NCBI GenBank assembly: GCA_965214705.1
Contig: CBDCCI010000002.1
Coordinates: forward strand, 448,001 to 512,000
Source of the DNA: Alphaproteobacteria bacterium
GTDB lineage: Bacteria > Pseudomonadota > Alphaproteobacteria > UBA828
Length of the DNA: 64,000 bases
Direction: 5' to 3'
Below, piece by piece: positions 31,310 through 47,739 of the stretch; position 1 is the stretch's first letter, and every line of letters begins with the position of its first letter. The translations under genes and the position numbers were made by a program. Below the pieces are notes generated by a model. The model did not search any database, was not told the DNA's origin, and saw only the letters and a list, made by a program, of their open reading frames with translations.

Positions 31310-31513
31310 GAAAAACACCAATTCATGTCGGGCCAGACTCTGAGGGGCCGACGCTCAAAATGAATGGCTCAAAAGGCTTATCCCTCTGAGCCACTTGCAG
31401 AATTCCGCCGTTGAGCGGGATTTTGCCGCCATGTGATGCAGATTGTTCTGGGAATCGGGACCGCTCTCTGTTCCTGTCGGGCTTCCGAAGACATCGACAG
31501 GGAGAGCGGTCCC

Positions 31514-32172
31514 ATGTCGCTGGGACAGACACTAACCAGATTCTTGAACTCCCTTCAAGGCGATCTCTTCCCGTGGCTTGAGGAGGAGCTCGGGCCACTC
31601 GGCGAGAGGTATCGGCGCTTCGTCACTGTGCTTGAGTTTGCGCGGGTCGAGAGCTTCCTTCCCCATTTTCATGGCCTGCCCGGTCGGCCGGTCGAGGACC
31701 GTGCGGCGCTGGCGCGCGCCTTCATCGCCAAGGCGGTGTTCGACGTACCCACGACACGCGCGCTGATCGAGCGCCTTGAGGTCGACAAGACGTTGCGCCG
31801 ATTGTGCGGCTGGAACTATGCCGGAGAAGTGCCGAGCGAGGCGACCTTTTCACGGGCCTTCGCCGAGTTCTCCGAGAGTGCCCTGCCCGCACGCCTGCAC
31901 GAGGCGCTGATCAAGCAGACCCTCGGCGACCACTTGGTGGGGCATGTCTCGCGCGATTCGACGGCGGTCGAGGCGCGCGAGAAGCCTCAGCGCAAACGCA
32001 AGAAGGAGAAGCCGAAGCGCAAGCGCGGTCGCCCGCGCAAGGGTGAGGAGCGGCCCAAGGAGCAGCGCCGCGTGGAGCGCCAGCTCGACATGACCCTGCC
32101 GCAGATGCTCGACGATCTGCCCAGAGCCTGCGATGTCGGCACCAAGCGAAACGCCAAGGGCCACACCACGTC
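31514..32172 (+). pseudogene. DDE transposase, N-terminal half
   Basis: PSEATFSRAF, SRDSTAVE, GTKRNAKGHTTS; continues in frame at 61276. Confidence 0.9.
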
Positions 32173-32291
32173 ACGCACCTGCGGTGCTAACTATCTGACA
32201 AAGGGTCGTTTTCTCTCCTCCACATTGTTGCATCCGGACGGATCCGTCAACTCCCGGTTCCCTGGCTGCAACCGAAACCGGGAGAGGGGAG

Positions 32292-33416
32292 ATGCCCAGA
32301 ACCCACCTTACGGACGCCCGCGTCCGCGCGCTCAAGCCCCGCAAGACCGCATACGACATTCGCGACGGCAAGCTCAGGGGGGTCGGCCTCCGCGTGCTGC
32401 CCTCAGGCGCCAAGCGCTTCTTCGTCCACTGCCAGCATCGTGGCGAGCGCGTCTGGAAGATCATAGGCGATGCCGCCACCATGGATGTCCGCGAGGCGCG
32501 ATCGCGCGCGGTGGCCATGCTCGCCGCGATCCGTCTGGGCGAGGACCCGCCACGCGATCCCGCCGAGACTCGCTTCGAGGCCATCGCCGAGGCCGCGTTC
32601 GAGCGCCGCAGCCGGCTTTGGAAGGCGGGAACGCTGGCGGTGAACCGGGGCTACCTGCGAAGACAGATACTCCCGCACTTCGCGGGACGGCAGATCGCCG
32701 ACATCGACAGCCGGGACGTCGCCAACTGGTTCGCCTCGCTGCGCGCCACCCCGGTCGCCGCAGACCGGTCCATGCCGGTGCTCTCCGTCATCATGCGCGA
32801 GGCCGAGGCGATGAGGCTCAGGCCCGAGGGCTCGAACCCGTGCAAGGGCATCCGGCGCTACCGCCGCAAGGGGCGCGAGCGCTTCCTGTCGGACGATGAG
32901 ATCCGCCGCTTGTCGGCGGCACTCACGGCCCTTGAGGGGCTGCATCCAGAGCAGGTCGCGGTCGTGCGCCTCCTCCTGCTGACCGGATGCCGGAAGGGCG
33001 AAATCCTGACGCTGCGCTGGTCCGACTACCGAGAGGGGCGCCTGTTCCTCCGTGACTCGAAGACGGGCCCCCGAACCGTCTGGCTGTCCGAGCCGGCCAG
33101 GAACATTCTCGACGCCCTGGAGCGAAAGGACCGCTGGGTGTTTCCCTCGTGCCGGACGGCAGGCCCGCAGGGCAACAACTGGCTGGACCGGTTCTGGTGG
33201 AAGCTCCGCGCCGAGGCGGAGCTGGAGGACGTTCGTCTCCACGACCTCCGCCACACCCATGCCAGCATCGCCCTGCGCGAGGGAGAGACCGTGCTCGCCA
33301 TCGGCCGGCTGCTCGGCCATGCCAGCCCGGAGACGACCCTCAAGTACACGCACCTCAGCGACGCCATGACGATGGAAGCCGCCGAAATCGTCGGCGCCGT
33401 GCTGGAAGGAAACTGA
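32292..33416 (+). CDS. Tyrosine recombinase/integrase (pair 2, first gene)
   Basis: Catalytic R, HxxR, H and Y motifs. Confidence 0.92.
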   Translation: MPRTHLTDARVRALKPRKTAYDIRDGKLRGVGLRVLPSGAKRFFVHCQHRGERVWKIIGDAATMDVREARSRAVAMLAAIRLGEDPPRDPAETRFEAIAEAAFERRSRLWKAGTLAVNRGYLRRQILPHFAGRQIADIDSRDVANWFASLRATPVAADRSMPVLSVIMREAEAMRLRPEGSNPCKGIRRYRRKGRERFLSDDEIRRLSAALTALEGLHPEQVAVVRLLLLTGCRKGEILTLRWSDYREGRLFLRDSKTGPRTVWLSEPARNILDALERKDRWVFPSCRTAGPQGNNWLDRFWWKLRAEAELEDVRLHDLRHTHASIALREGETVLAIGRLLGHASPETTLKYTHLSDAMTMEAAEIVGAVLEGN

Positions 33417-33419: not shown

Positions 33420-34565
33420 ATGGCCGGCAGGGAACGCATGCGGCTGACCGACGCCTCCGTCGAACGCCTCCGTCCGCGAGAACGGGAATTCACCGTCTGG
33501 GACGACCGCACCCCCGGTCTCGGGGTCCGGGTCCGGCCCGGCGGCGGGAAGAGCTATGTGTGGTTGCAGCGATCCGGCGGGCGCTCGAAACGCATCTCCC
33601 TGGGTCCGGTGTCGCTCAGGACCGTCGCAGAGGCTCGCCGGGATTGCCTCGCGCGGCAGCTCGCCCCGGAGCCCGACAGGGAGAGCGTGCCCAGGCGCCG
33701 CGCCCCCTCGTTCCGGGAGTTCGTCGAGGGCGAGTGGAAGGACGCGCATTTCCAGCGCTACAAGCCCTCCACGAAAAAGGGGCACCGCTCACTCCTTGCG
33801 AGGCAGCTGTTGCCGAAGTTCGGGTCGATCCCGCTCGACCGCATTGCCTCCACGCGGGTCAGGCGGTGGTTCGAGGCGTATAGCCGGACCGCTCCCGGCA
33901 ATGCCAATCACAGCCTCGACGTCCTCCGCCAGATCATGAACTTCGCCATCGCGCGCGGCCATGCCGATGCCAACCCGACCGCAGGCATCCAGCCCAACCG
34001 CCGGCCGGAGCTCACACGCTTCCTCTCCCGCGAGGAGATCGCCCGTCTCCACAGGGCGCTCAACGGGCAAGCCGGACGGAGGAACCGCCAGCAGGCCGAC
34101 GTGATCCGGCTCCTGCTGCTGACCGGCTGCCGCAGGGGCGAGATCGTGCGCCTGCGCTGGTCCGAGGTCCAGGGCGACACGCTCATGTTGGCCGACAGCA
34201 AGACCGGTCCCCGGAAGGTCCCTCTCAATTCGCAGGCCCGGCGCATTCTCGAACGGCAGCCTCGGGGAGAGAGTCCGTTCGTGTTTCCGTCGCCGCGCGA
34301 TCCGTCCCGGCCGCGCCACCCCGACCTCAACCTTTGGTACCGGGTCCGGAAGGAAGCCGGCATCGACGATGTGCGCCTCCACGACCTCCGGCACACCGTG
34401 GCCAGCCAGGCGGTGATGAACGGCGTTCCGGTGCCGGTGGTGTCCCGGCTGCTCGGCCACTCCAATGTCCGAATGACCCTGCGCTACGCTCACCTCGGAG
34501 ACCGCGATATCGAACGGGCCGCCGAGAGGGTGGGTCAGGCCATCGCCAGGAGAATGGAGCGGTAG
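33420..34565 (+). CDS. Tyrosine recombinase/integrase (pair 2, second gene)
   Basis: Catalytic R, HxxR, H and Y motifs. Confidence 0.92.
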   Translation: MAGRERMRLTDASVERLRPREREFTVWDDRTPGLGVRVRPGGGKSYVWLQRSGGRSKRISLGPVSLRTVAEARRDCLARQLAPEPDRESVPRRRAPSFREFVEGEWKDAHFQRYKPSTKKGHRSLLARQLLPKFGSIPLDRIASTRVRRWFEAYSRTAPGNANHSLDVLRQIMNFAIARGHADANPTAGIQPNRRPELTRFLSREEIARLHRALNGQAGRRNRQQADVIRLLLLTGCRRGEIVRLRWSEVQGDTLMLADSKTGPRKVPLNSQARRILERQPRGESPFVFPSPRDPSRPRHPDLNLWYRVRKEAGIDDVRLHDLRHTVASQAVMNGVPVPVVSRLLGHSNVRMTLRYAHLGDRDIERAAERVGQAIARRMER

Positions 34566-34699: not shown

Positions 34700-35009
34700 T
34701 GCTCCGCGGCCGTTTTCTCCAGAGCCAGACGCCATCGGTGATGTCTGTGCGCGCACCGTGCATTGCCCGGCCTTCGCCACCGTGCAGGGCATGATCCGCC
34801 TCGCCGACGACCATGGTGGCGATCGCCTCGACGCACTCTGCGCCGAGGCCCTCGACCTCAACCGCCTCGCCTCGGGCTTCCTCAGGGAGCGCGTCAAGAA
34901 CGGCGGCGAGCCCGATCCGCCGCGCCCCGAGCACGACGAGACCATCCCCAGCCACGGCAACATCCGCGGTGGCGACTACTACGGCAACAACGGAGGAGCG
35001 ACACCATGA
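34700..35009 (+). pseudogene. istA: IS21 IstA C-terminal fragment
   Basis: HGNIRGGDYY C-terminal signature; stop overlaps the istB start (ATGA). Confidence 0.8.
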
Positions 35010-35791
35010 CGCTGCGACAACCCAACATCGACCGCCTGCTGCAGCTCGGTCTCAGCGGCATGGCCGAGGCCCTGGAGGAACAGCGCGACATCGCCGACGT
35101 CGACCAGCTCGGCTTCAACGACCGCCTCGCCCTGATGATCGAGCGCGAGGCCGAACACCGCGATCACAAAAGCTATCTCGGCCACCTGCGCCAAGCCCAG
35201 TTGCGCATCCGCGCCGACATTCAGGACGTCGACTGCCGCGCGGGGCGCGGCATCGCCCGGACCACGCTCACCCAGCTCGCCGCCGGCGACTGGATCCGCC
35301 AGGGCCACAATCTGATTCTGGGTGGGCCAACCGGGTCGGGAAAGACGTTCGTCGCTTGCGCGCTCGCCCACCAGGCCTGCCGCCAGCACCAGTCCGTCCT
35401 CTATCGCCGCGTGCCTGAGCTGGTCGCCGCCCTCATCCGCGCCCGCGACAAGGGCACGCTCGAGCGCCTGATGGGCCGCCTGGGCAGGGTCTCCCTGCTG
35501 GTGCTCGACGACTGGGGCCTCCAGGGCTTCTCCGCCGAGGGCCGGCGCGACCTGCTGGAGATCGTCGAGCAGCGCCACGGACGCAAGTCCATCCTCATCG
35601 CCAGCCAGATCCCCGTAGACGGCTGGCCGAAGGTGATCGGCGAGCCGACGATCGCGGACGCGGTCCTCGACCGCATCGTCCACAGATACCATGAGCCGGT
35701 TGCTTCGACTCGACTTCGAGTGGTTCGAGGCACCCGGAGAGAAGGCCCCCACCTTCTCTCCGGGAGGAACCGTCAACAACGGAGTGGACGA

Positions 35792-36988
35792 ATGTCAGAC
35801 TATCCAAGCACGACCGCGCTGACAGGCGCGAGGCATAGCACGGTTTACGTTGCTGTGGAGATCAGTCTCAAATCGTGGATTGTGGGAATGCATTGCCCGG
35901 ACGCTTCGGGCGGCTGCATCAGCATCCACAAGCTGGCCACTGCGGACACGGCCGGACTGGTTGAGCTTGCTGGGTCGGTGCGGGAGCGGGTGGCGAGGGA
36001 GCTGGGTGCGCGTCCGCGAGTGATGCTGACCTACGAGGCGGGCTACGAGGGGTTCTGGCTGGCCCGGGACATCGAGCGCCGAGACGCGGAGATCGAAATC
36101 TTCATGAACGATCCGGCGAGCCTGCAGGTGAACCGCCGCGCCAAGAGGAAGAAGACCGATCGGATCGACACGAGGAAGATGCTTCGCGCCCTGAAGGCGT
36201 GGGACCAGGGCGATTCGGAGGCCATGTCCTGGGTACGAGTGCCGGCAGTGGACCGGGAGGACGACAAGCGCCTGCTGCGCGAGAGGGAGACGTTGATCGT
36301 TGAGCGCACGCGCCTCAACAATCGGATCAGGGGGCTGTTGATGCTGCACGGCATCTTCGACCTGGCGCCGCGCCGAGCGGACTTCCTGGATCGGCTTGCA
36401 GCCGCGCGGACCGGCTATGGAGCGCCTTTGCCGCCGCGGGCGCGGGCCGAGATCGAGAGGGCGGTCGCGGTGCTTCGTCTGGTTGAGGCTCATATCGACA
36501 CGATCGAGGCCGAGAAGAAGGCCCTGCTGAAGGCCGGCCGGAAAGCCGTGGACGCGCCGAACCGGGACGGGACGGCGGTGATCGCGGCGCTCACGCGGAT
36601 CCACGGCATCGGCCTCAACGATGCGACGCTGCTGGCCGGCGAGGTGTTTTATCGGGACTTCCGCAATCGGCGCGAGCTGGGCAGTTGGGCCGGCTTGACA
36701 TCGGTACCGTGGGCGAGCGGCGGGGTCGATCACGATCTCGGCATCAGCAAGGCCGGCCCCTCGCACATCAGGAAGCACATGATCCAGATGTCGTGGCGCT
36801 GGTTGAAGCTGCAACCGGAAAGCGGGATCACGAAGTGGTTCCATGCCTATGTCGCCAGAGCTGCCAATGGTGGCAGGGACAAGCGCGCCAGGAAGCGCGC
36901 GATCGTCGGCGTCGCGCGCAAGCTTCTGATCGCGCTGTGGCGCTACGCCACCCAGGGGCTGGTGCCGGAGGGCGCCATCGTCTCGTGA
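35792..36988 (+). CDS. IS110-family recombinase
   Basis: VEISLKSW, YEAGYEGFWL, KTDRID, WASG. Confidence 0.92.
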   Translation: MSDYPSTTALTGARHSTVYVAVEISLKSWIVGMHCPDASGGCISIHKLATADTAGLVELAGSVRERVARELGARPRVMLTYEAGYEGFWLARDIERRDAEIEIFMNDPASLQVNRRAKRKKTDRIDTRKMLRALKAWDQGDSEAMSWVRVPAVDREDDKRLLRERETLIVERTRLNNRIRGLLMLHGIFDLAPRRADFLDRLAAARTGYGAPLPPRARAEIERAVAVLRLVEAHIDTIEAEKKALLKAGRKAVDAPNRDGTAVIAALTRIHGIGLNDATLLAGEVFYRDFRNRRELGSWAGLTSVPWASGGVDHDLGISKAGPSHIRKHMIQMSWRWLKLQPESGITKWFHAYVARAANGGRDKRARKRAIVGVARKLLIALWRYATQGLVPEGAIVS

Positions 36989-37330
36989 CGGCGTTGGCCG
37001 AACGAGAAGGAGACAACACGAGGTTCCGACGCGGTCGGACGCGACCGCGGAGGATGCCGGGCAAGGCGTGTGACCGAATAGGCGTTGGGTTGCCGAATGG
37101 CACCGTTCCATAGATGGGTCCCGCCTCCCGGAACGTCGCGACCGCCTGGATGCGGTATTGGGGTCGCGGAGCCGGCGAGAGCCGGAGCTCCGAACCGGAT
37201 AAGAGTTGAGCAGCGTGACGAGCCGCTGCGTGGAAAAGACGTTCTGCCTGGACATCGGCCGCGGATGCGAGTGGGGAGATCACGAATGCCATTCACGTAA
37301 ATGAAGTCGGGCCTTGCAGAGAGAGCTCAT
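36989..37330 (+). ncRNA. Putative bridge/seek RNA
   Basis: NCR contains ATAGGCGTTG (37078-37087), the reverse complement of the reconstructed target CAACGCCTAT. Confidence 0.75.
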
Positions 37331-37680
37331 AAGACGCCTATCGCATCGAGCTCAAGGGAGAGTCCCAGCGCAAGCGCAACAAGCCCCCGCCACTCGACGG
37401 CGGCGGCAACAGAGCCCCGGCCTGACGGCCGGGGTCCATGGGCGCCTGCGGCGCCTTCCGGGTTGCGAGGCCGGTGGCGCGCGGCGGCATGCTGTGTGTG
37501 AGAGCTTGCCGCCGCGCCCCGCCGGCCGTTTGCATGCCCAAGAGGCCTCGCATACGCTCGGCTCGGGCTGGCCAAAGGCCAGCCCCCCGACATCACCAAG
37601 GGGAGGGTCACACCGCCAAATCCGGGAGAGACAGCGCGCTGGCGCGCGCCTGCGCCACGGTCAAGTGTTGCCAGAATCCC

Positions 37681-37726
37681 GGTCAAATAAAATCAGAATC
37701 GGCGGTCAAATAAACCGGAATCCGCA
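37681..37726 (+). repeat. IS21 right end
   Basis: Two GGTCAAATAAA-N-GAATC repeats terminating in CA. Confidence 0.75.
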
Positions 37727-37835
37727 GGAGAATGCCGTTCGCTCTTCATGGCGTCTGATCCTGCCCGCCGGGGCTTGCTCTGGCGCCGGATTTCATGCAA
37801 TGGCTTGGAGCGGCAGAAGCGAAGGTAGGTTCGAA

Positions 37836-38450
37836 ATGGAAAAGGTGTTCATCTATTGGGACAATTCGAACATCTTCATCAGCGCTCAAGAAGTCGCGAG
37901 CGAACGGGAAGGGGTAGAGACCCGTTACAGAGTGCGCGTCCAATTCCGAAACCTGCTGGAACTGGCGCGGGCCGGCCGCGATGTCGAGCGGGCGATCGCC
38001 GTCGGTTCCATTCCCCCGGAGTTGCGGCACGTCTGGAACCGATTGGAAAATGAAGGTGTCACCGTTCAGTTGCTGGAACGCGGCGCGATGGAGCGCCGAG
38101 AGCAGGGCGTCGACCAAACCCTGCAAACTGCGATGCTGCGCGATGCGTTCGACTACAACGGATCGCCGGGAATCGCGGTCATGCTCACCGGCGACGGCAG
38201 CGGCTTTCATGACGGCGTCGGTTTTCATGCCGACCTGGAGCGCATGCACAGTCGAGGATGGCGCATCGAAGTGCTGTCGTGGCGACATAGCTGCAACCGC
38301 CGGATGCGGGAATGGGCGGAGCAGAATGGCCGGTTTGTCGCCCTGGATGACTATTACGAGAGCGTAACCTTCCTTGAACCGCCGCCGCCGGGCCAGCCCA
38401 TCGCCGACCCGCGCCATGCGGTTCCGGTCAACCTGGACGACCGCTTGTGA
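37836..38450 (+). CDS. NYN-domain (PIN-like) putative ribonuclease
   Basis: IYWDNSN, EQGVD and LTGDG acidic motifs. Confidence 0.8.
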   Translation: MEKVFIYWDNSNIFISAQEVASEREGVETRYRVRVQFRNLLELARAGRDVERAIAVGSIPPELRHVWNRLENEGVTVQLLERGAMERREQGVDQTLQTAMLRDAFDYNGSPGIAVMLTGDGSGFHDGVGFHADLERMHSRGWRIEVLSWRHSCNRRMREWAEQNGRFVALDDYYESVTFLEPPPPGQPIADPRHAVPVNLDDRL

Positions 38451-38559
38451 TCCGGCCCTGCGTCTGCATGGCTCGCGCCGCGCGTTCGCGTCGGAGTTGG
38501 TGACGGGCGGCGAAACCGCGGGTGCTGAAGGGTGTCGGGGTTGATGAGCCGCCGGTTCG

Positions 38560-38790
38560 AGACCCAGCCGGCGGCGAAGCGGAGTTTGACCCTCCCGCCA
38601 ACGACCTCGACATAGCGCTCGAGCGTCTTCAGCGATGGCACATGACCGGGGCCACGGTGTGCTGGTTCATCTTCATCCCTTTGGCCACTTCGCTCTGGGT
38701 CAACCCAGCCGTGACACGCGCCTTGATGAGTTCCCGACGCCGGCTTGAACTCGGGTTTCGGAGCGTCGGTGCCGGTGGCATCATATTGCC
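38560..38790 (-). pseudogene. XRE/HTH regulator remnant, divergent from cas6
   Basis: LIKARVTAGLTQSEVA and, in another frame, PSLKTLERYVEVVG. Confidence 0.65.
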
Positions 38791-38836
38791 GGAACCGGAC
38801 GGAGCGGCCGTCCGCCTGACGATAAAGGCCCATGGT

Positions 38837-39478
38837 ATGAACGGGACGCTCGATGTTTTCTTTCGCGTCATTGGCGCGGAAGCGCCTGCCGACCATGGCT
38901 ACGCGCTGTTCGGCGCGATCTCCCGCATTCTGGAGACGGAGGACGACCGCTGGATGCACGGCAACCCGCATGTCGGCCTCCACACTATCCGCGGCGCGAA
39001 TCTGGGGAACGGCCGGCGCTTGATTGGCTCCGGCGCGCGCTTCGGCCTGCGCCTGCCGTCAGAGCTGTTGCCCCGTTCTCTGAAGTTGGCCGGAAAATGC
39101 ATCGACCTTGATGGTTGCAAGCTGCGCGTCGGCGTCGGCGAGATCCGAGCCTTGGTCCCAGCGGCAACGCTGCACTGCCGAATAGCGACCACCAAGAACG
39201 GTGACGATCCCGCTCGCTTTGACGGCCAGATCGCCCGGCAGCGCGCCTCTCTCGGCATTCGCGGCAATGTCATGCGCGCGCCGGAGAGTGCCGCGCGAAG
39301 CGACAGACGCGACCCGAGTCGCCGCATCCTCCGCGTGAAGGGCAAGCGGATCGTCGGTCATGCCCTCCTCGCGACGGAACTGACGACCGAGGAGTCTATC
39401 CTGCTTCAGAAACGCGGCCTCGGTGGCCGGCGGCGGATGGGATGCGGGGTGTTCGTGCCGGTGACTGGGAGGCCTTGA
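38837..39478 (+). CDS. cas6: Cas6, MYXAN type
   Basis: PADHGYALFGAI, C-terminal GLGGRRRMGCGVF. Confidence 0.92.
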   Translation: MNGTLDVFFRVIGAEAPADHGYALFGAISRILETEDDRWMHGNPHVGLHTIRGANLGNGRRLIGSGARFGLRLPSELLPRSLKLAGKCIDLDGCKLRVGVGEIRALVPAATLHCRIATTKNGDDPARFDGQIARQRASLGIRGNVMRAPESAARSDRRDPSRRILRVKGKRIVGHALLATELTTEESILLQKRGLGGRRRMGCGVFVPVTGRP

Positions 39479-39540
39479 CAATTGAGGCATCGGGCTGTAG
39501 TTGGTGGCTCGTCCATGCCACTAACACTATAAGGGAACAA
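39475..39540 (+). promoter_or_regulatory. Putative promoter/RBS region containing the mini-array target
   Basis: TTGACA at 39475, TATAAG at 39528, AAGGGA before ATG 39542; the -35/-10 pairing is not canonical. Confidence 0.5.
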
Positions 39541-39541
39541 G

Positions 39542-39730
39542 ATGATGCTTGGACGCAGTTGGGTACAGGTGTCTCACCGGAAATGTGTCTATGAGGAGTG
39601 GTGCGAGGAGACGGTGAGGGAGTGGTCCGAGCAACCAGAATGGCGCGGGCCGCAGAGGCCAGTCAGGAAGGCCGACGCCCTGTTAACCGTAAGACCACGA
39701 GCACCTCATGATCTTGAGACTGAGGAGTGA
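39542..39730 (+). CDS. Small orphan ORF (62 aa), candidate CRISPR-repressed toxin
   Basis: RBS-like AAGGGA; stop codon lies inside pseudo-repeat 1. Confidence 0.45.
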   Translation: MMLGRSWVQVSHRKCVYEEWCEETVREWSEQPEWRGPQRPVRKADALLTVRPRAPHDLETEE

Positions 39731-39823
39731 TGCCGAAAGGCGTTTTGCACGTGTTCGTGGCATGGGTGGTCTGATGTTGCCTGACTCCTTCAACCAGTGA
39801 TGCCGAAAGGCGTTCGCGAGCAT
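39726..39823 (+). CRISPR. Degenerate one-spacer mini-array (CreA/CreR-like)
   Basis: AGTGATGCCGAAAGGCGTTTTGCAC and CAGTGATGCCGAAAGGCGTTCGCGAGCA resemble the 3' part of the main repeat. Confidence 0.85.
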
Positions 39824-42242
39824 GAATCATGTGCTACTCGCCAAATCGCAGCGCGAAGAGGACGGCCAGATTGTCGAGCCGGTATCCTTACTGGATCACT
39901 CAAGGGCCGTCCTCGCAGCAGCCCATGCGATTCTCGACGAGATTGAAGACTTCCTTCCCCCGGAAATAGCCAAGCCCGATCTACGGAAACTGGTTCTCGC
40001 CGGAGCGGTCCTGCACGACATCGGCAAGGCCAACAACATGTTTCAGGGAATGCTTCGCCCGAAACGGGCGGAGTTCCCGGAGATCCGATGGCCCCAGAGG
40101 CAGCCGCTCCGCCATGAAGGGCTTAGCGCCCTGATTGTCGCAGGGTATATCGAGGAAGCCCGCGAGTTCTCCGACCATTTGGTCGATGAGTTCTTTGATG
40201 ATTGGAACGATCCGCACCAGGCCCTGTGGATGCTGGCTTGGCTGGTGGGTGGCCATCACCTCCAGATGCATCACGCTGAGGAAGCCGCGGTTGCCATGGT
40301 TCGCATCAGCGGCATTCCCGACGGAGCAATCCGGTTTCATGGCAATCTCTTGGGAGAAAGATGGCAACGAGAATTCGCCGACGTGTTGGGTGAGGCGCCT
40401 TGCGTTCCTGATTTTGTCGTTTCCACGGACATCGGCGACAGCGACGGACACCACGCCGCCCTCATGGATTATTTCGCCTGGGAGTCGGAAGAAAGAGCCG
40501 AATCTCTGTCAGCTGAGGAGTTGCGCTTGCTGGCGTTTGCGAAGGCGATTCTTATTGCCGCCGACGTCGCTGGCTCCGCGTTGTGGGACACGAAAGGCGG
40601 CAAGATGACCCGCTTGGAAAGCGGCGTAAGAATGTCGTTGCAGAACCATTGCCGGCGAGAAGATCTGACGGAAATTATGCGCACCCGTCTTGATGTGGGA
40701 GAAGACGGCGGCTACGAGCCCAAACTTTATCCCTTTCAGCGTCGAGTCCGCAACGCGCGTCAATCCCGTGTCGTTCTGGAGGCGGCTTGTGGCGGCGGCA
40801 AAACGCTCGCAGCCTATGGATGGGCGCTACAGCACGCGGAACAAGGACGCAAGTTGATCATCTGCTACCCGACCACGGGAACGGCGGCGGCGGGTTTCGA
40901 GGACTACCTGCTGATTCAGGGCGAGCTGGAACGCAAGCTGATGACGGGCCGCGCCGATGTTGACGTTCGCCGAATGCTGGCCAACGAGCCCGAGCCGGTC
41001 GACGGCAAAGAACGTAGTCTGCGTCACCCCAACCGCGACGAAGACCTGGAAAACCTATTGAAACAAGAGTCCCTGCAAGCCTGGGGCCAGCAAGCCATCG
41101 CCGCGACCGCTGATTTCGTCCTGGGATTGATGCAGAACCATCGCCGGGGACTCTTCAGCTTTCCGGCCATCATCAAGAGCGCAATCGTTTTCGACGAAGT
41201 CCACAGCTACGACACCAAGATGTTCGGCTCACTGGTTCGATTCTTGCGTGTATTCCCGAATGTCCCCGCGTTGCTGATGACAGCGTCGCTGCAACCGGCG
41301 CGGCGTGAAGCGTTGGATTCAGCTGGTATTGAATACGCACTTGTTCTCGGCGACGATGATAAGGAAAGAACTGGAAGGTATCGCCTGGAATGGTGCGAAA
41401 AGGATCCCCTTGTGTCGGTCGACGAAGTCCAAATCACGGCCCCGGACAAATGCTGGTCCGACGTTCAAAACGCGCTTGACAAAGGTGGTAAAGTGCTTTG
41501 GGTGTGTAACACTGTCGCGGACGCCGTACGCGTTTATGACGAGGCGGAGAAGCTGGACGGCCATGCGAAACGCATCCTGTTTCACAGCCGCTTCTGCTAT
41601 CGCCACCGCGTGGACCGTCAGAACGAGATACTGACAACCTTCAACGAAGACAAGATGCCGTGTCTGGCGGTCACGACTCAGGTGTGCGAGATGTCGCTGG
41701 ATATCAGTGCGGATATGCTGGTGACCGCCCTTTCGCCGTTTCCCGCTCTCGTGCAGCGGATGGGCCGGCTGAACCGCCGTTTGACAAACCCGGACGGCGC
41801 CCTTTGCTTGGTCTATGACTATGACGGCATGGATGGCCGGCCTTATCGTCGGGCGGATCTGAAGACGGCCCGCGATGCCGTCAGGATCCTCGCCGAAGCG
41901 CGCGGGCAGTTGTCCCAGCGCGATCTCAAGAACGAGCTGGACGGGATGCCCGAAGCGGTCGACGACATTAAGTTCCATTCCGCTTGGCTGGACGGCGGCT
42001 GGGAAAGCAGACAGGCGGCCCTGCGAGAGGGCGACGCGACCGTGCCGGTCTTGTTGGCGCAGCATGAGAGCGATATACGCGAGCGGATAAGGGAAGTCGG
42101 CAAGAACGCGGCCGTCAAAGCCGTCAAGGAGTGGTTGGTTCCGATTCTGCACGGAGCCAGGGAATTCCGCGTGGTCGGCCGAATAGGCGGCTATCCGGTC
42201 GTGTACGGCGTCGAATACGACGAAGAAAAAGGCGCGCGATGA
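39822..42242 (+). CDS. cas3: Cas3 HD nuclease-helicase
   Basis: LHDIGKAN, ACGGGKT, DEVH, MTAS, QRMGRLNR. Confidence 0.95.
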   Translation: MNHVLLAKSQREEDGQIVEPVSLLDHSRAVLAAAHAILDEIEDFLPPEIAKPDLRKLVLAGAVLHDIGKANNMFQGMLRPKRAEFPEIRWPQRQPLRHEGLSALIVAGYIEEAREFSDHLVDEFFDDWNDPHQALWMLAWLVGGHHLQMHHAEEAAVAMVRISGIPDGAIRFHGNLLGERWQREFADVLGEAPCVPDFVVSTDIGDSDGHHAALMDYFAWESEERAESLSAEELRLLAFAKAILIAADVAGSALWDTKGGKMTRLESGVRMSLQNHCRREDLTEIMRTRLDVGEDGGYEPKLYPFQRRVRNARQSRVVLEAACGGGKTLAAYGWALQHAEQGRKLIICYPTTGTAAAGFEDYLLIQGELERKLMTGRADVDVRRMLANEPEPVDGKERSLRHPNRDEDLENLLKQESLQAWGQQAIAATADFVLGLMQNHRRGLFSFPAIIKSAIVFDEVHSYDTKMFGSLVRFLRVFPNVPALLMTASLQPARREALDSAGIEYALVLGDDDKERTGRYRLEWCEKDPLVSVDEVQITAPDKCWSDVQNALDKGGKVLWVCNTVADAVRVYDEAEKLDGHAKRILFHSRFCYRHRVDRQNEILTTFNEDKMPCLAVTTQVCEMSLDISADMLVTALSPFPALVQRMGRLNRRLTNPDGALCLVYDYDGMDGRPYRRADLKTARDAVRILAEARGQLSQRDLKNELDGMPEAVDDIKFHSAWLDGGWESRQAALREGDATVPVLLAQHESDIRERIREVGKNAAVKAVKEWLVPILHGAREFRVVGRIGGYPVVYGVEYDEEKGAR

Positions 42243-44149
42243 CCGGCCAAGTCAAGAAGGCGAAAAGCACCGGAACGATCTTCCGCCTGAACGAGCCCGG
42301 TATGGGTGAGCATGAACGCGCGGGCCTGGCGGGTTTGTGCTTGAGCCTGACTGCGGCAGCGGCGTGGGAAAATCAGCGGAAGGCGTGGCCGTTGCCCGGG
42401 GCCGTGGCAAAGAAGCTCGACGCGTTGTATGAAACGATAAGCAATTCGGACGCACTGGGCTTTCCCTTCTCGGAAAACGGTAGCGGCGTCCGTTTGGAGT
42501 GGCCGGCGGGCGGTGAAAAGGCCGCGTTGGAGGCTGCCGTCAAATGGGCGTGGCAGGTCCATGACGGCGTGCTGTTCCTCCCCGGTGTCCATCGAAAGCG
42601 CGAGCATCTGGACTGCTACTATTTGCGGTTGCATATCCATGACGGCCTGTTGGGAACCTTTTTCCAGTTCCCCCGAACGATCAAGAAAGTGAAAGATCCT
42701 GAGCGGAGGGTCGTGCGCTTCGACGAGGAGAAGACCTTCTCGGTATCTTATCGCCGTATCACGTCCCACACTTTGCCCCAGCATAAGGCCGTCCCCAAGA
42801 TGGGGGTTTGCGGCGATGCTCTGGTCCCGACCATGTCTTCGTGGATTTACCCCGGGTCGGAGCCACGTTTCAACAACAACATCCCACCGAAACTCCAGCG
42901 GGAGACCGGATGGCGCGGTCCGGCGCGGTTCGCCTATCTGATGTTGTTTGCGCCCATCGCCTGTCATTACATTAGGTTGCCGCGCTCGAATGCTCAAAAT
43001 TGGTCATACATGGTTCCAAGCGTCGAGAACCTGCCGAAGTTTCAGCGCGGATTCCTGCGCCGGAATATTGTCAATGCCGGGAATTGGCCATTCCACGGCG
43101 AGGTCGCGGGGCTGGAGGACGCCGCGTTGCGCTATGCGACGCGGGACAAGACGCACGGGCAGTCCGTGACGGTCGTCATGGGAAAAGCCGACTTCTACCA
43201 TCCGCAGCAGAAGACGCGCAAAAATCTGTGGCGAGATATCGCCGTGGCCGATGACATGCGAAGGGCATTTCGACGCTATGGCATTTTCAACCGCGTATTT
43301 CCGGCGAGCAACACGGTCCGGCCGACCCGCGAGGTCAAGTGCGAGGAAAGCGACGAGAAGGGTAACCATTTCGTTGTCCTGCCGAATTGCCGTGAGCGGA
43401 TCACCGCGAACATATTGCGCAACGATCCATGGTATGCCGATCTGGCCTATATTCCTTTCTGGCAGCGCGACCGCATCGAGAACGAGTGCCAGAATGCTCG
43501 GAAACGCGGTCTGCGGGCGGTAGGACTGAACGTGCCGTGGCGAAGTGACGATCAAGAGAAGGAAACTATCTCTCCAGCGAGGCTATGGTTCCTGAAATTG
43601 TACCACTTTGAGAGGAAGCACCTGATGTCACTTGCGGACGAAAGCGAAGTCTGGGATGACCCGCTGGAGAAGCACTTGCTCGACGCCTTTCGCGAAGCGT
43701 TCCGGCGGCTCTTGAATCGTGAGTACGCAGCCGTCCGGAAAAGGAGCGGAAGCCGCGACCTGCACAAACGCTGGGACAATACGGCGGACAAGTGGCACCG
43801 CCGCCTCCTCCATGCCAAGACCCGGCTCTTGCTGTCCACAGCGGTACACGAGTTGCTCGTCGAGGCGTCGAGAAGCCCGTCGTATTTCGTGGAGAAGGAT
43901 GGCACGCGGGTGGAACGCCCTCCTGGGCCGGCCTTTCTGCTTTCGAGAAAGGGCGGCGGCGAGGAGTCCCGTCGTGACCGCAACGATAGATTCCACGCCG
44001 AATTCCGCCGAATGGTAAATCATCGGAGCGACTGGAAGAAGATTCGCGATCTGGCGCTTCTGGCGCTGACGACATTTACGGACTCGCGTCTCCGACAGCC
44101 CAGAAACGACCAATCCTCCAGAGACCACGAAGAGGAAATCGACCAGTGA
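42239..44149 (+). CDS. cas8: Cas8 large subunit (Cas8a1/Cmx8-like)
   Basis: ERAGLAGL N-terminus, LMLFAPIAC, WKKIRDLALLAL C-terminus; position between cas3 and cas7. Confidence 0.82.
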   Translation: MTGQVKKAKSTGTIFRLNEPGMGEHERAGLAGLCLSLTAAAAWENQRKAWPLPGAVAKKLDALYETISNSDALGFPFSENGSGVRLEWPAGGEKAALEAAVKWAWQVHDGVLFLPGVHRKREHLDCYYLRLHIHDGLLGTFFQFPRTIKKVKDPERRVVRFDEEKTFSVSYRRITSHTLPQHKAVPKMGVCGDALVPTMSSWIYPGSEPRFNNNIPPKLQRETGWRGPARFAYLMLFAPIACHYIRLPRSNAQNWSYMVPSVENLPKFQRGFLRRNIVNAGNWPFHGEVAGLEDAALRYATRDKTHGQSVTVVMGKADFYHPQQKTRKNLWRDIAVADDMRRAFRRYGIFNRVFPASNTVRPTREVKCEESDEKGNHFVVLPNCRERITANILRNDPWYADLAYIPFWQRDRIENECQNARKRGLRAVGLNVPWRSDDQEKETISPARLWFLKLYHFERKHLMSLADESEVWDDPLEKHLLDAFREAFRRLLNREYAAVRKRSGSRDLHKRWDNTADKWHRRLLHAKTRLLLSTAVHELLVEASRSPSYFVEKDGTRVERPPGPAFLLSRKGGGEESRRDRNDRFHAEFRRMVNHRSDWKKIRDLALLALTTFTDSRLRQPRNDQSSRDHEEEIDQ

Positions 44150-45090
44150 CCACGCACATCTTCGGTATGGCGCTCACGCACGAGGGTACCTTCTCCAACA
44201 ACCGGGGCGAAAACGAGGGCAACACCAACACGCTTCAGAAGGTCATACGCAACGGCGACATCTTCTCGACCGTTTCGGCGGAGGCGATTCGCTACGCCCT
44301 GCGCGACGGCTGGCAGCGTGATGGCGAAACCCTGAACCGGAGGACGCTCGACCATCGAGCAGTCGAATACAATGATCGGGACTTCAGTCCCGATCATTGG
44401 CCGTCCCGTCTGGATGACGATGTTCTCGGATTCATGCACGCACGGGAAGACACCGTGAGCCGCCGCGCGCCGCTGGAAGTGACCCGCGCCATTTCCGTCA
44501 CGCCATGGACCGGCGAGGTCATGCACAACTTTGCTGCTCCCGGCTCCAATCCGATAGAGAGACGCGATGACCCGAACCCAATCCCGTATTCGGTGGAAGT
44601 CCATCATACCCGCTATCAGTTCGGATTCGCCCTGACGCCGGATTCTCTGGGACGGGCAAGCAATGACGTCAACAGCGTACACAACGACGACGAGAAGATC
44701 AGGCGTGTTTCTGCAACACTGAACGGCCTCGCCGGCCTGCGGCGGGTCGGCGGCGCCCATGCCCGTTATTTCGCTGACTATTCGCCGGAAATCCTCATCC
44801 TTCGCGTTACCGCCGACCCCGCGCCGCGCATGCTATATTGCTTCGAGCAATCTGAGGGAAGCGGCTCCATCGGCGTCCGCACTCTTGAAAAGAAGCTCGG
44901 CAAAGATATCGCCCCCGAGGAACTGATCATCGGCGCGGCGATCGACATCTCCGAGTTGCGCGACTTGAAGTCGGACGATAGCGGACGCATCCTCGACGAC
45001 GGGGGCCCGTGGAAGGGAGCGACCTTGGCCGGCGGCGTGAAAGACGCAGTCGCAAGGTGCGTGGACCGCTTGAGCGGCCGGGTGTCGTGA
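44146..45090 (+). CDS. cas7: Cas7 (DevR-type)
   Basis: NNRGENEGN, VSAEAIRYALR, DDDVLGFM, EVHHTRYQ. Confidence 0.92.
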   Translation: MTTHIFGMALTHEGTFSNNRGENEGNTNTLQKVIRNGDIFSTVSAEAIRYALRDGWQRDGETLNRRTLDHRAVEYNDRDFSPDHWPSRLDDDVLGFMHAREDTVSRRAPLEVTRAISVTPWTGEVMHNFAAPGSNPIERRDDPNPIPYSVEVHHTRYQFGFALTPDSLGRASNDVNSVHNDDEKIRRVSATLNGLAGLRRVGGAHARYFADYSPEILILRVTADPAPRMLYCFEQSEGSGSIGVRTLEKKLGKDIAPEELIIGAAIDISELRDLKSDDSGRILDDGGPWKGATLAGGVKDAVARCVDRLSGRVS

Positions 45091-45773
45091 CAGGCACGGT
45101 CCCCGACTCGAGCGATATCCTCACCCTGCGAGTGGATGTTCCGATGGCGGGACTGCGTCCTATGTGGGCGCGGGAGTATCAGGAGACTTATCCCGCGCCG
45201 CCGCCCTCCACAGTCTACGGCATGTTGCTGTCTCTCGTCGGCCTCGAACGCGAGGACAAAGACAGACACTCCGGTTTGCGAATCGTGCTCGCGCTCGCGG
45301 AACACACGGCGGAGTCACTCTGGCGAAGGCAGGAGAAAGGACGGGTGTTCCGCAAATTCCGCCGCGTGGCTCAGAGCAAGAGGGACGCCGATCCCCTTGC
45401 CGACCGCCGTCCCGATTACCAGGAACTATTGCTCGGTCTGGAATTCTGGACATGGGTGGACGACTCACAGACGAAATGTCCGCTGTCCGATAAAATCCGC
45501 ATGGCGCTCGATCCGGAACGACGCAGCGAAGTTGTCCGACACGGCGCGCTATGCCTTGGCGAGTCCTCGCATATGGTCAACGAAATTTCGCTGGATCGTC
45601 CACACGGGAAAGGACGCTTTGTGGCCCCGTGCGAAAACGGATTTCTTTCAATGCCGGTCTGGAGCAACTACGGTGCAACCGGTCGGCCGACATTGGTCAA
45701 CTTTGAAATCCGAGAACCGGAAGAATTGCCGAATGATCCGCCCGACGACTGCTGGATCATCATCGCTCCCTGA
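45087..45773 (+). CDS. cas5: Cas5, MYXAN type
   Basis: AREYQETYPAPPPSTVYGMLLSLVG, LCLGES. Confidence 0.92.
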   Translation: MTGTVPDSSDILTLRVDVPMAGLRPMWAREYQETYPAPPPSTVYGMLLSLVGLEREDKDRHSGLRIVLALAEHTAESLWRRQEKGRVFRKFRRVAQSKRDADPLADRRPDYQELLLGLEFWTWVDDSQTKCPLSDKIRMALDPERRSEVVRHGALCLGESSHMVNEISLDRPHGKGRFVAPCENGFLSMPVWSNYGATGRPTLVNFEIREPEELPNDPPDDCWIIIAP

Positions 45774-47458
45774 TGACAGATGCCTCGACAGACGGTGCCC
45801 CGGCTACCCCGCCCCCCGAAGACGGAGACAACTCGCTCATCCGTGTCATGGCGTTGCACGCCTTGGCCTATTGCGAGCGGCTGTTCTATCTGGAAGAGGT
45901 CGAAGAACTTCGCGTTGCCGACCACCGCGTTCACGCCGGGCGCACACTGCACCAAGCGGAGGTGGATGGGAAGCGCGAGTGGCGGAGCTTGGAGCTTGCC
46001 AGCGACAACTGGGGCATTCGCGGCAAGGTGGATTTCGCCCGCTACCGCGATGGCCAACTTGTCGCCATAGAACACAAGAAGGGCCGCTCCAGGGGCGACG
46101 AAGCTTGGGAGACCGACAAGCTTCAAGTCACGGCCTATGCCGTTCTCCTGTCCGAACACTTCGAGAGACCGGTGGCGGAGGGGCGCGTGCGGTACCACGC
46201 CAGCAACAAGACGGTGCGCGTGGCCGTAGACGACGCGGCCCGCGAGCGTCTGCGGCGCGCCGTCGCTCGAGCGCGGAAGCTGTCGCTTTCGCTGGAGCGT
46301 CCGCCGGTGACGGACAATGAGAACCTGTGCGCCAAGTGCTCGCTCGCGCCGGTGTGTTTGCCCGAGGAGGCCCGCCTGGCCGCCGCGGTTGGCGAGGCCG
46401 ACGAACCGGCTTGTGCCGCGAAGCCACGCCGCCTGTTCCCGAAAGACGATGCGCGCCGCGTTCTGCATGTCGTGAATCCGGACGCGCAGGTGAGGCGTGC
46501 CGGCCTGCAATTCGTGGTGCGCGATTCCGATGGCGAGGAGAAGAAGTTTCCCGGCATGGATGTCGGCGCCGTGATCCTGCACGGCAACGCACAGATCACA
46601 TCGCAGGCAATCCGTTTCGCCGTCGCCAACGACATCGCCGTGCACTGGATCAGTGGCGGCGGCTGGTATGTAGGCGGCGTCGCGCCGCCCGCCGGTACGC
46701 ACCGGCGCCTGCGGCAATACCGGGCATTGCAGGACGAGGATTTTAGCCTGCGTCTCGCGCGTCGCTTGGCAGAAGCCAAGATGGAAAACCAAGTACGGTT
46801 CATCGTCCGTCAGTCGCGCGTGCGTGGCGTGCGCGCGAAAGCGGAGGCATTCTTGGCCGTCATGCGCGGCCAACTCCGGCAGGTTGAGCGATGCGCCGAC
46901 GCGGATGCCCTGCGCGGCCACGAGGGGATCGCGGCCCGTAACTACTTTTCGGCGCTCGCCCTACTTCTCGATGCCCGGGAGAAGACGATGGTGTTCTCCG
47001 GGCGAACCCGCCGACCGCCGCGCGACGGCTTCAACGCGGCCCTGTCCTTCGGCTACGGCCTGTTGTACCGCGAGGTCATGGCCGCGATCATCGCAGTGGG
47101 ACTGGACTCCGCGGTGGGATTCTTTCACGCGCCACGCACCGCGGCTCATCCGTTGGCGCTGGATCTGATGGAACTGTTTCGTACCACCCTGTGGGACATG
47201 CCGCTGGCGGCGTCGGTCAACCGGCGACAATGGACCGCTGAACATCTCGCAGTGAACAAGAAGAGGGTTTGGCTTTCCGACGCGGGCAAGCGCTTGGCGA
47301 TCAGCCTGTTCGAGCAACGCAAGCAGGAGACCTGGAAGCACCCAGTGCTCGATTATTCCCTGAGCTATGCGCGGACGATAGAACTGGAGGCGCGGCTTCT
47401 GGAAAAGGAATGGAGCGGCGAGGAAGGGCTGTTCGCCCGCATGCGCCTGCGCGGATGA
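45773..47458 (+). CDS. cas1: Cas4-Cas1 fusion
   Basis: YCERL, GKVD, EHKKG, CAKCSLAPVC (Cas4); GHEG, NAALSFGY, LDLMELFR (Cas1). Confidence 0.95.
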   Translation: MTDASTDGAPATPPPEDGDNSLIRVMALHALAYCERLFYLEEVEELRVADHRVHAGRTLHQAEVDGKREWRSLELASDNWGIRGKVDFARYRDGQLVAIEHKKGRSRGDEAWETDKLQVTAYAVLLSEHFERPVAEGRVRYHASNKTVRVAVDDAARERLRRAVARARKLSLSLERPPVTDNENLCAKCSLAPVCLPEEARLAAAVGEADEPACAAKPRRLFPKDDARRVLHVVNPDAQVRRAGLQFVVRDSDGEEKKFPGMDVGAVILHGNAQITSQAIRFAVANDIAVHWISGGGWYVGGVAPPAGTHRRLRQYRALQDEDFSLRLARRLAEAKMENQVRFIVRQSRVRGVRAKAEAFLAVMRGQLRQVERCADADALRGHEGIAARNYFSALALLLDAREKTMVFSGRTRRPPRDGFNAALSFGYGLLYREVMAAIIAVGLDSAVGFFHAPRTAAHPLALDLMELFRTTLWDMPLAASVNRRQWTAEHLAVNKKRVWLSDAGKRLAISLFEQRKQETWKHPVLDYSLSYARTIELEARLLEKEWSGEEGLFARMRLRG

Positions 47459-47739
47459 GTGGCCGGCACTGGTATATTTTCAGCTACGACATCCGGGACC
47501 CAAAACGGTGGCGCCTAGTGTATAAGATCGTCAACGGTTATGGGGAGCGGTTGCAGTACTCCCTGTTTCGATGCCACCTGACGCGGACGCAGATGGAACA
47601 AGCCCGGCACGAATTGGAAAAGGTGCTGGGGGAAGAAGACGACCTGCTCGTGATTCGGCTGTCGCCGCGCTCTCAGGTCATAGAGCGGACCAACGGAAAA
47701 CAGTGGGCCGATCCACCGCCGCGCTTCGATATCGTGTAG
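47455..47739 (+). CDS. cas2: Cas2
   Basis: YDIRDPKRW, GERLQYSLF. Confidence 0.95.
   Translation: MSGRHWYIFSYDIRDPKRWRLVYKIVNGYGERLQYSLFRCHLTRTQMEQARHELEKVLGEEDDLLVIRLSPRSQVIERTNGKQWADPPPRFDIV

Follow-up and report, generated by a model that had tools for sequence, protein, structure and literature searches.

Between the cas6 and cas3 genes of a type I-MYXAN CRISPR-Cas locus, carried on the 64-kb stretch of alphaproteobacterial DNA analysed here (the window; genome size 7.9 Mb, G+C content (GC) 0.667), lies a decayed mini-CRISPR of two repeats and one spacer at positions 39715-39820. This mini-array is probably a gene of the CreA/CreR class that encodes a CRISPR RNA (crRNA)-like regulatory RNA of the type I-MYXAN system, and its most likely function would be the Cascade-guided repression of a unit composed of a 62-codon open reading frame (ORF62), the guide itself and the cas3 operon. 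The spacer of the mini-array (pseudo-spacer) matches, over its first 15 nucleotides (nt), a site ahead of ORF62 that is flanked by a candidate protospacer-adjacent motif (PAM). The elements concerned are arranged as follows.

39475-39480, plus strand: TTGACA, a hexamer that resembles a -35 element and overlaps the stop codon of cas6, with no acceptable -10 element after it in the window
39513-39527, minus strand: target (protospacer), matching the pseudo-spacer at 14 of 15 positions; the crRNA-like RNA would pair with the plus strand
39528-39530, minus strand: PAM position, 5'-ATA-3' (TAT on the plus strand, the first half of TATAAG at 39528-39533)
39531-39536, plus strand: AAGGGA, a Shine-Dalgarno-like sequence 5 nt upstream of the ORF62 start
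39542-39730, plus strand: ORF62, an orphan of 62 codons that starts (ATG) 11 nt after the PAM and stops (TGA, 39728-39730) inside the first pseudo-repeat
39715-39750, plus strand: first pseudo-repeat (psiR1), with the hairpin core at 39726-39742 and the 8-nt 5' handle at 39743-39750
39751-39784, plus strand: pseudo-spacer of 34 nt, with the seed GTGTTCGTGGCATGG at 39751-39765
39785-39820, plus strand: second pseudo-repeat (psiR2), with the hairpin core at 39796-39812 and a degenerate 3' 8 nt, abutting the cas3 ATG

Anatomy of the mini-array

The anatomy of the mini-array is directly established. The hairpin core GTGATGCCGAAAGGCGTT, which has a GAAA loop, occurs in exactly two copies outside the CRISPR array, at 39727-39744 and 39797-39814, and recurs with one mismatch (GAGA loop) in 20 of 20 repeats of the array at 47988-49392, so that 22 matches are observed where 0.06 would be expected. 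The Rfam model CRISPR-DR33 aligns at full length to both pseudo-repeats (39719-39750, 22 bits; 39784-39817, 19.5 bits), with both scores below its gathering score of 39 bits, and these alignments fix the repeat/spacer register independently of reading by eye. A 6-base-pair hairpin folds in psiR1, psiR2 and the array repeat alike, and the two pseudo-repeats are spaced 70 nt apart. Core copies, model alignments and folding thus confirm an earlier reading of this DNA from its letters alone (the preliminary description), in which two degenerate repeats that keep their hairpin enclose one spacer; the same account had the second repeat overlapping the cas3 start, and this proved incorrect, as in the 36-nt register psiR2 ends at 39820 and abuts the ATG at 39822.

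The two pseudo-repeats have degenerated asymmetrically. Compared with the 36-nt array repeat, psiR1 keeps 16 of 17 positions in the hairpin core and 6 of 8 in the 3' 8 nt that form the 5' handle (TTTTGCAC versus TTGAGCAC in the array), with 2 of 11 in its 5' part, while psiR2 keeps 16 of 17 in the core, 3 of 8 in the 3' 8 nt and 2 of 11 in the 5' 11 nt. Only those portions are retained that are destined for the mature crRNA-like RNA, namely the hairpins and the psiR1 handle, and the 5' part of psiR1 and the 3' 8 nt of psiR2 have decayed. Such asymmetric degeneration is typical of the CreA/CreR class, as is a pair of repeats beside cas genes that flanks a single spacer. The 5' 11 nt of psiR2 (39785-39795), which share only 2 of 11 positions with the resident array, agree at 9 of 11 with the array repeat of locus L086 (NC_011737.1, a Gloeothece plasmid; array of the same repeat family at 3120-4240 in locus coordinates), and the mini-array may descend from a repeat variant different from, or older than, the resident array.

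The seed match and its target

Nucleotides 1-15 of the pseudo-spacer match the minus strand of 39527-39513 at 14 of 15 positions; position 6 alone is mismatched, and ATA forms the 5' flank. Realignment and genome controls uphold the preliminary description on all these points, as well as on the restriction of pairing to the first 15 nt, beyond which the identity between pseudo-spacer and target is about random. The match starts exactly at the repeat/spacer junction. Its significance was assessed with 3000 chunks of 374 nt drawn at random from the same genome, in which the best anchored match of the 15-mer reached 14 positions in none, 13 in one and 12 in 24, and the 19 real array spacers matched the same region at 11 positions or fewer. 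Across the genome, the seed pattern with any base allowed at position 6 is found only in the spacer and the target, plus one site with one mismatch on another contig. A match that covers the PAM-proximal part of the pseudo-spacer rather than its whole length, at a site in or near the locus, is again a feature of the CreA/CreR class. The target is located 14 nt before ORF62 and 294 nt before cas3, and contigs of four sequencing runs are identical to the window where they cover 39200-40100, with no variants.

Protospacers of the array spacers, sought for the PAM, were found neither in the organism's own genome nor in the phage and plasmid collections; one phage candidate (28 of 31 positions) was disregarded at an E-value of 0.4. 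A second copy of the seed, GTGTTCGTG, is present at 39449-39463 on the plus strand in the 3' end of cas6 (11 of 15 positions overall), where it coincides with the VFV codons of the conserved GCGVFVP motif; it is flanked by GGG, which is not a PAM, and the copy may be due to chance or be a trace of the spacer's origin.

Conservation in closely related loci

Relatives were collected by a Cas6 scan with one genome per species, which found 114, and the best 80 of these 114 were kept; the cas6-cas3 gap itself was inspected in the first ten loci. A scan of the 80 kept loci for repeat pairs located a pair just downstream of cas6 in one locus only, L001, an alphaproteobacterial metagenome-assembled genome whose Cas6 is 81-82% identical to that of the window. 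Conservation of the module in L001 and the matching changes within it are direct observations: relative to the window, the L001 seed is changed at positions 1 and 9, and both changes recur in its target. Covariation of spacer and target, which the preliminary description had proposed to look for in homologs, is therefore seen at these two positions. Position 6 is mismatched in both loci, the flank in L001 is ATG, the distance from target to spacer is 230 nt in L001 versus 224 nt in the window, and the psiR1 handle agrees with the array repeat at 8 of 8 positions in L001 versus 6 of 8 in the window.

In locus L002, the closest relative of L001 (Cas3 88% identical, versus 76-78% to the window), all that is left of the module is a degraded trace of psiR2 and the 3' end of the spacer, in which about 29 of 49 bases of the gap (4640-4700) align with the corresponding part of L001. 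Since L002 retains this remnant and is nearest to L001, the module is ancestral to the window, L001 and L002 and was lost by deletion in L002. The cas6-cas3 gap measures only about 15-70 nt in L002 and L003, which are without the module, and cas3 therefore normally stands directly after cas6; the cas3 start codon is kept in the alignment of L001, L002 and L003. The Cas3 N-terminus (as protein) and a pattern joining the psiR2 core to the cas3 start had no match in metagenomes, and in the genome collection both matched only the L001 and L002 contigs. The module DNA was not found in the 60 relatives searched and had no match in the phage collection; the one match in the plasmid collection was rejected as a module copy, being an ordinary array of the same repeat family.

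A shared pattern among Cas6-related loci

The 3' end of the array repeat, ...GGCGTTGAGCAC, is common to the arrays across the Cas6-related loci fetched, and the 80 loci were scanned for stand-alone or array-edge copies of this conserved part. A seed match was scored when the 9 nt that follow, with position 6 ignored (positions 1-5 and 7-9), recurred within about 700-800 nt. Among the 38 repeat-like elements found in 25 of the 80 loci, nine have such a match nearby, with 11 hits in total, nine of them flanked by ATG, whereas reversed seeds gave four hits and no ATG, and shuffled seeds (20 rounds) gave means of 1.6 hits and 0.15 with ATG. A control that used spacer nt 10-18 as the seed was disregarded because 38 of its 40 hits were the spacers themselves. 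This association of seed and PAM across the family is observed directly.

When the window and the nine matching loci are lined up, positions 1-5 and 7-9 are imposed by the search and the remaining ones are informative. Position 6 is matched in 1 of 10 loci, position 10 in 8, position 11 in all 10 and position 12 in 3; positions 13-17 are matched in 5-8 of 10, position 18 in 3, and positions 21-24 in 3-4. Every sixth base is flipped out when Cas7-backbone Cascades of type I-E pair with their targets, and the lapses at 6, 12 and 18 appear to follow the same rule of a Cas7-backbone complex. The flank is ATG in 8 of 10 loci, ACG in L037 and ATA in the window. The longest agreements are those of L049 (18 of 20) and L042 (17 of 20), and the window, together with L044, has the best contiguous run from position 1. 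In L011, L028 and L049 (ATG flank), and likewise in L037, the target is on the same strand as the spacer, as a direct copy, so that pairing between two RNA segments cannot explain the pattern. The target is on the opposite strand in L041, L042, L044 and L060, with only 41-109 nt between the PAM and psiR1.

The eight matching loci other than L001 (L011, L028, L037, L041, L042, L044, L049 and L060; seven with ATG and one with ACG) belong to planctomycete, Terriglobia and cyanobacterial genomes and combine stand-alone repeats with a seed match. In L028 and L049, the mini-array stands upstream of cas6 with the target in between. The pseudo-spacer seed of L060, in minus-strand orientation, has three nearby matches, at 4778, at 4212 (ATG flank) and at 4521 (AAG flank), and this guide may have several binding sites. 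Downstream of the target in L042 (7151-8609, plus strand) are a TTGACA, two small open reading frames (ORFs) of 85 and 84 amino acids, the latter with a C-terminal stretch that resembles a helix-turn-helix by eye, and then a second cas6 and cas8, giving the order cas6-cas3, divergent mini-array, second cas6-cas8 unit. In six cyanobacterial loci (L051, L054, L056, L059, L063 and L071), pairs of short AT-rich direct repeats, spaced at 74-84 nt and unlike the CRISPR repeat, are located about 440-540 nt ahead of cas6; only about 3.5 kb separates cas6 from the array there, a distance that suggests the absence of cas3.

Proposed mechanism of repression

To the left of the target in the window is only the 3' end of cas6, transcribed towards the target, and to its right ORF62, the mini-array and cas3-cas8-cas7-cas5 all run rightward. 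No terminator-like site was found in 39200-40000; with co-directional genes and no terminator to the right of the target, a bound Cascade would act on transcription entering this unit. A consensus scan of the same interval returned 0 promoter-like sites. In L001, TTGACC-18-TATGAT occupies the equivalent place and ends 25 nt before the target, which would then sit at about +18 to +33 of the transcript. The lack of a promoter hit in the window and the promoter-like site upstream of the target in L001 together make an early-transcript roadblock more likely than occlusion of a promoter. The target does abut TATAAG (39528-33) and the AAGGGA stretch, as had been described, but the reading of TATAAG as a promoter is unsupported by the scan; as a -10 element it was rejected, having no -35 element at 16-18 nt and being immediately followed by the Shine-Dalgarno-like sequence.

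On this basis, a possible mechanism may be proposed. Cas6 would bind the two hairpins and cut out an RNA of about 70 nt, in which the handle (8 nt, 39743-39750) would be followed by the pseudo-spacer (34 nt) and then by the 5' part of psiR2 with its hairpin. Cas8, Cas7 and Cas5 could then assemble on this RNA, and the complex may recognise the PAM-flanked site at 39513-39530, with about 15 nt paired in 5-nt segments and position 6 flipped out. Pairing of this length would be too short for a full R-loop and recruitment of Cas3, so that the complex may stay in place as a roadblock or promoter blocker. It could thereby lower transcription entering the ORF62-guide-cas3 unit, whether started locally or read through from cas6, and the outcome would be a negative feedback on the effector genes that also senses the loss or inhibition of Cascade, with ORF62 as co-repressed cargo. 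Processing by Cas6, loading into Cascade, binding without cleavage and the affected promoter are what we infer. The claim in the preliminary description that a degenerate mini-array guides Cascade to a PAM-flanked site is strengthened by the L001 changes and by the seed/ATG pattern of the family, and the toxin attached to that claim did not share in this support.

The only relatives of the window Cas8 and Cas6 in the PDB are those of the type I-B transposon Cascade 8fcj, whose PAM, like that of AvCAST, is ATG (PMC13251919); this homology counts in favour of a Cascade-guided regulator. The precedent of CreA from Haloarcula hispanica likewise counts in favour of repression of the cas3 operon without cas6.

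Several points weigh against Cascade-guided repression. The flank in the window is ATA, and the other nine loci all have G at position -1 (eight ATG, one ACG). In the solved relative, a Cas8 residue reads PAM position -1 (PMC13251919), and Cascade binding at ATA could therefore be weaker or lost; this flank appears to be the main sequence-level doubt about activity in this genome. There are also the two changes in the psiR1 handle. The exact module is present in one other locus only, the matching changes amount to two positions in one pair of sequences, and the module is dispensable, given its loss in L002. Furthermore, no sigma-70-like promoter was recognised at or near the window target, and the geometry of L001 would imply a roadblock and not promoter occlusion.

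ORF62 and alternative explanations

A possible, though unlikely, alternative is an addiction module of the CreTA type, in which ORF62, as a protein or as a translated RNA, would be a toxin kept silent as long as Cascade carries the mini-array RNA and released when Cascade is lost or inhibited. Such a role would leave room for autoregulation of the cas3 operon, as the two tasks are combined in H. hispanica CreA. The ORF at 39542-39730 with its stop in the first repeat, as reported in the preliminary description, was confirmed; it is the only open plus-strand frame in the mini-array gap of the window, and its start lies directly under the Cascade site. The chance that 62 codons stay open at this GC is estimated at about 1 in 10 per locus, the GC by codon position (0.65/0.48/0.63) is coding-like, and frame 0 has the best codon score of the three frames in both the window and L001; on the other side, this score (-0.36) is below that of every in-frame cas window (minimum -0.23). 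The counterpart in L001 has 64 codons, a Shine-Dalgarno-like sequence (GGAG at the same place), an ATG 11 nt after the PAM and a TGA inside psiR1. ORF conservation, which was to be checked in homologs, therefore holds in L001 for the geometry and fails for the sequence: BLASTP finds no similarity between the two products, and in global alignment they are only marginally similar (equalled by 41 of 2000 shuffles).

ORF62 belongs to no family in Pfam or NCBIfam and is without the KilA-C domain of CreP, it has no homolog in 5.8 billion clusters and no usable Atlas match, and its AlphaFold model is unconfident (mean predicted local distance difference test score 49). No CreT-like tandem rare codons follow the start, and the anatomy is thus not that of CreT; 12 of the 62 codons are rare, with a cluster (TTA .. 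GTA AGA CCA) near the 3' end, and the matching transfer RNA (tRNA) genes are present. Judged from the sequence, the peptide is hydrophilic, which argues against a small toxin of the membrane type. ORF62 also stands upstream of the guide and cas3 in the same direction with no terminator between, and would be transcribed whenever the feedback lets the operon run; moreover, L002 has lost the whole block without visible consequence. The toxin or addiction part of the preliminary description accordingly finds no support in family, homolog, fold or codon usage. Within ORF62, a 12-nt tandem repeat, GAGGAGTGGTGC (39593-39631; 3.2 copies, 68% matches), encodes a repeated Glu-Glu-Trp motif. The ORF62 region has no similarity to the array leader and no paralog in the genome.

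Evidence on the side of the toxin comes from the turnover of the block between the cas6 stop and psiR1. At four-fold degenerate sites of cas3, the window and L001 are 69% identical (320 sites; 34% expected at saturation), and the mini-arrays are 71-85% identical, whereas this block is 35-45% identical and scores at the level of shuffles (local alignment, 512 of 1000 as good; global, 152 of 500). As its divergence exceeds that of the four-fold sites, the block either outpaced neutral sites or was replaced, with the geometry and the match to the guide kept. CreT genes are likewise poorly conserved, and a protein toxin under CreA control has a precedent in CreP. In addition, L041, L042 and L044 have no ORF of at least 30 codons between the PAM and psiR1, and L060 has one 32-codon frame with a TTG start; with a comparable ORF missing in these four loci, the ORF segment of the window is an addition. 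Turnover this fast is compatible with a cargo that evolves under conflict and speaks against a leader that drifts neutrally, although it proves neither.

A rather doubtful reading goes further and takes the block as an exchangeable, fast-evolving toxin cassette silenced by Cascade, in which a grammar is kept and the ORFs are unrelated; this apparent grammar would consist of the PAM, the seed, the 11-nt spacing and the stop inside psiR1. If this were true, the cassette would be swapped or diversified under conflict, for example with anti-CRISPRs, and the bacterial I-MYXAN system would contain a CreTA-like addiction or anti-anti-CRISPR module with replaceable payloads.

Alternatively, ORF62 could be a translated leader whose sequence is irrelevant, with ribosomes preventing premature termination over the about 200 nt that separate the regulated start from the mini-array and cas3, or modulating the access of Cas6 to psiR1, so that selection would maintain only an uninterrupted frame, its Shine-Dalgarno sequence and the place where it stops. 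Such a leader would account for the kept frame, Shine-Dalgarno-like sequence, start spacing and stop in psiR1 beside an amino-acid sequence that is not kept and an ORF that has neither fold nor homolog. Neutral drift, however, predicts an identity near that of the cas3 four-fold sites, not at shuffle level, and related loci do without such a segment, which makes this explanation improbable.

The mini-array might also be the relic of a former regulator, in which the ATA PAM and the two changes in the psiR1 handle have weakened or abolished Cascade binding in this genome. The window is alone among the ten loci in having no G at PAM position -1, L001 has an intact handle, and the module was lost in the closely related L002. 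A 14 of 15 seed match, which ranks jointly with L044 as the best contiguous run, is nevertheless unlikely to last long without selection, both hairpins are intact, and AT had earlier been reported to suffice as the PAM of one relative (PMC13251919), so that decay of the regulator seems quite improbable. Finally, an RNA helix between 39513-39527 and 39751-39765, which are inverted repeats on one strand and would share a transcript that starts upstream of 39513, as the promoter-like site of L001 suggests, or mere chance in a decayed array remnant can hardly replace DNA targeting: folds of 39531-39830 and its L001 counterpart are no better than shuffles (z -1.5 and -0.1), in all loci the match sets in exactly at the repeat/spacer junction and beside an AT(G/A) flank, the mismatches are those of positions 6, 12 and 18, the direct-copy targets of L011, L028, L049 and L037 make a helix impossible, and chance is excluded by the genome-wide uniqueness and the 0 of 3000 random chunks.

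The CRISPR-Cas locus and its surroundings

By its gene content, the locus is assigned to type I-MYXAN, which is related to I-B, and is complete: cas6_cmx6, csx13_N, csx13_C, Cst2_DevR, cas5_cmx5_devS, cas1_MYXAN and cas3_core (NCBIfam) all score above their curated cut-offs. The genes and the array, which ends in a degenerate repeat, are the following.

38822-39478, plus strand: cas6 (Cas6/Cmx6); NCBIfam TIGR02807 cas6_cmx6, E-value 1.7e-44; Pfam Cas6
39822-42242, plus strand: cas3 (HD nuclease and helicase); NCBIfam cas3_core and cas3_HD
42131-44149, plus strand: cas8 (Cmx1/Csx13); NCBIfam; ORF limits, start approximate
44146-45090, plus strand: cas7 (DevR); NCBIfam; ORF limits, start approximate
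45009-45773, plus strand: cas5 (Cmx5); NCBIfam; ORF limits, start approximate
45773-47458, plus strand: cas4-cas1 fusion; NCBIfam cas1_MYXAN
47455-47739, plus strand: cas2; Pfam Cas2
47988-49392, plus strand: CRISPR array; 20 repeats (GTGAAATTGTCAGTGATGCCGAGAGGCGTTGAGCAC, 36 nt each), 19 spacers (34-41 nt)

The ORF that contains cas6 (38522-39478) codes for 318 amino acids, and its homologous part begins at residue 100-110 in the matches to the 80 loci, which places the true start near 38820; the stretch 38522-38820 represents about 100 extra codons before the homologs' start, and the annotated start of cas6 is probably near 38820. Upstream of cas6 are a DUF772 transposase (31433-32899), a phage-type integrase (33420-34565) and a long ORF (34763-36988) that matches both IS21 IstB and IS110 transposase models and is probably two genes read as one. 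An ORF for an NYN-domain protein (37314-38450), with a 22-23-nt tandem repeat at 37671-37722, lies between these mobile-type genes and cas6. No tRNA genes were found in the window. The GC is about 0.58-0.66 in the cas genes versus 0.67-0.69 in the flanks, and this lower GC, together with the upstream integrase and insertion sequence (IS) genes, would fit horizontal acquisition. The mobility attributed to the locus in the preliminary description is thus backed by the integrase, the IS genes and the GC contrast, although no defined mobile element was delimited.

Comparison with known systems

The type of regulator proposed here is already known, and its occurrence in I-MYXAN would be an extension to another subtype; no description of an I-MYXAN mini-array regulator was found in the literature searched, the supplementary tables of the mini-array papers excepted. 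The literature claims of the preliminary description on the position of CreTA/CreR modules next to cas6, repression without cleavage and the ATG PAM hold in the cited texts as far as these were compared.

In CreTA of H. hispanica (type I-B), the creA mini-CRISPR and the creT RNA toxin are located in the gap between cas6 and cas8 (bioRxiv 10.1101/2023.03.10.532045; PMC9458426), and CreA represses creT and the cas8 operon, but not cas6 (bioRxiv 10.1101/2023.03.10.532045). The limited complementarity of such guides leads, according to the CreA literature, to repression without cleavage, and CreT genes are poorly conserved. Similarly, the window has a degenerate two-repeat mini-CRISPR directly after cas6 inside the cas operon, a spacer partly complementary to a nearby site flanked by a candidate PAM, a small ORF-bearing unit under the target, and the genes after cas6, not cas6 itself, downstream of the site. 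In contrast to CreTA, the system is a bacterial I-MYXAN, the next gene is cas3 instead of cas8, and the PAM is AT(G/A) instead of TTC. Two divergent promoters flank the target in CreTA, whereas the target, ORF, guide and cas3 of the window are co-directional, and the start of the 62-codon ORF62, unlike that of CreT, is not followed by tandem rare codons.

CreR elements, such as that of Salmonella enterica type I-E, autorepress cas operons, and follow the rule that the 5' handle survives in psiR1 and the 3'-handle portion in psiR2 (bioRxiv 10.1101/2023.03.10.532045). The window element likewise is a stand-alone degenerate mini-CRISPR with the same asymmetric retention of repeats and about 15 nt of PAM-proximal identity upstream of an effector operon, which predicts an autorepression that senses the availability of Cascade. 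It differs from CreR in its subtype, in a target that is upstream of the guide gene and in the ORF between target and guide; with the target upstream, the guide would itself be subject to the feedback, unless it is transcribed from a promoter of its own.

In CrePA of Acinetobacter baylyi ADP1 (type I-F), a protein toxin is repressed by CreA, and CreP possesses a KilA-C domain and has homologs in 50 loci (bioRxiv 10.1101/2024.01.05.574328). The window resembles CrePA in the small ORF with a Shine-Dalgarno sequence beside a mini-array in a cas gap and in the match between the pseudo-spacer seed and a putative promoter region; ORF62 is unlike CreP in having no domain or homolog, and the subtype and PAM differ as well. 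Shmakov et al. (2023) reported that repeat-like sequences of type I-B are enriched near cas6, with mini-arrays that target the cas6 promoter (PMC10120712). The general class and the adjacency to cas6 agree with that catalogue, and L028 and L049 resemble its I-B examples; the cas6-[target-ORF-guide]-cas3 layout is not described in the portion of PMC10120712 compared, whose supplementary tables were outside the comparison.

The I-MYXAN branch also supplies the Cascades of type I-B CRISPR-associated transposons, and two properties can be read from the sequences of the present set, ATG as the PAM and pairing in 5-nt segments with lapses at 6, 12 and 18 over about 17 nt, both of which would be useful for retargeting of effectors. 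An ORF of kept geometry and unrelated sequence between target and guide would in addition be a simple test case for replaceable toxic payloads. Self-regulation by crRNA-like RNAs is known from types I-B (archaeal), I-E, I-F and V-A, and the window and the nine matching loci would extend it to type I-MYXAN.

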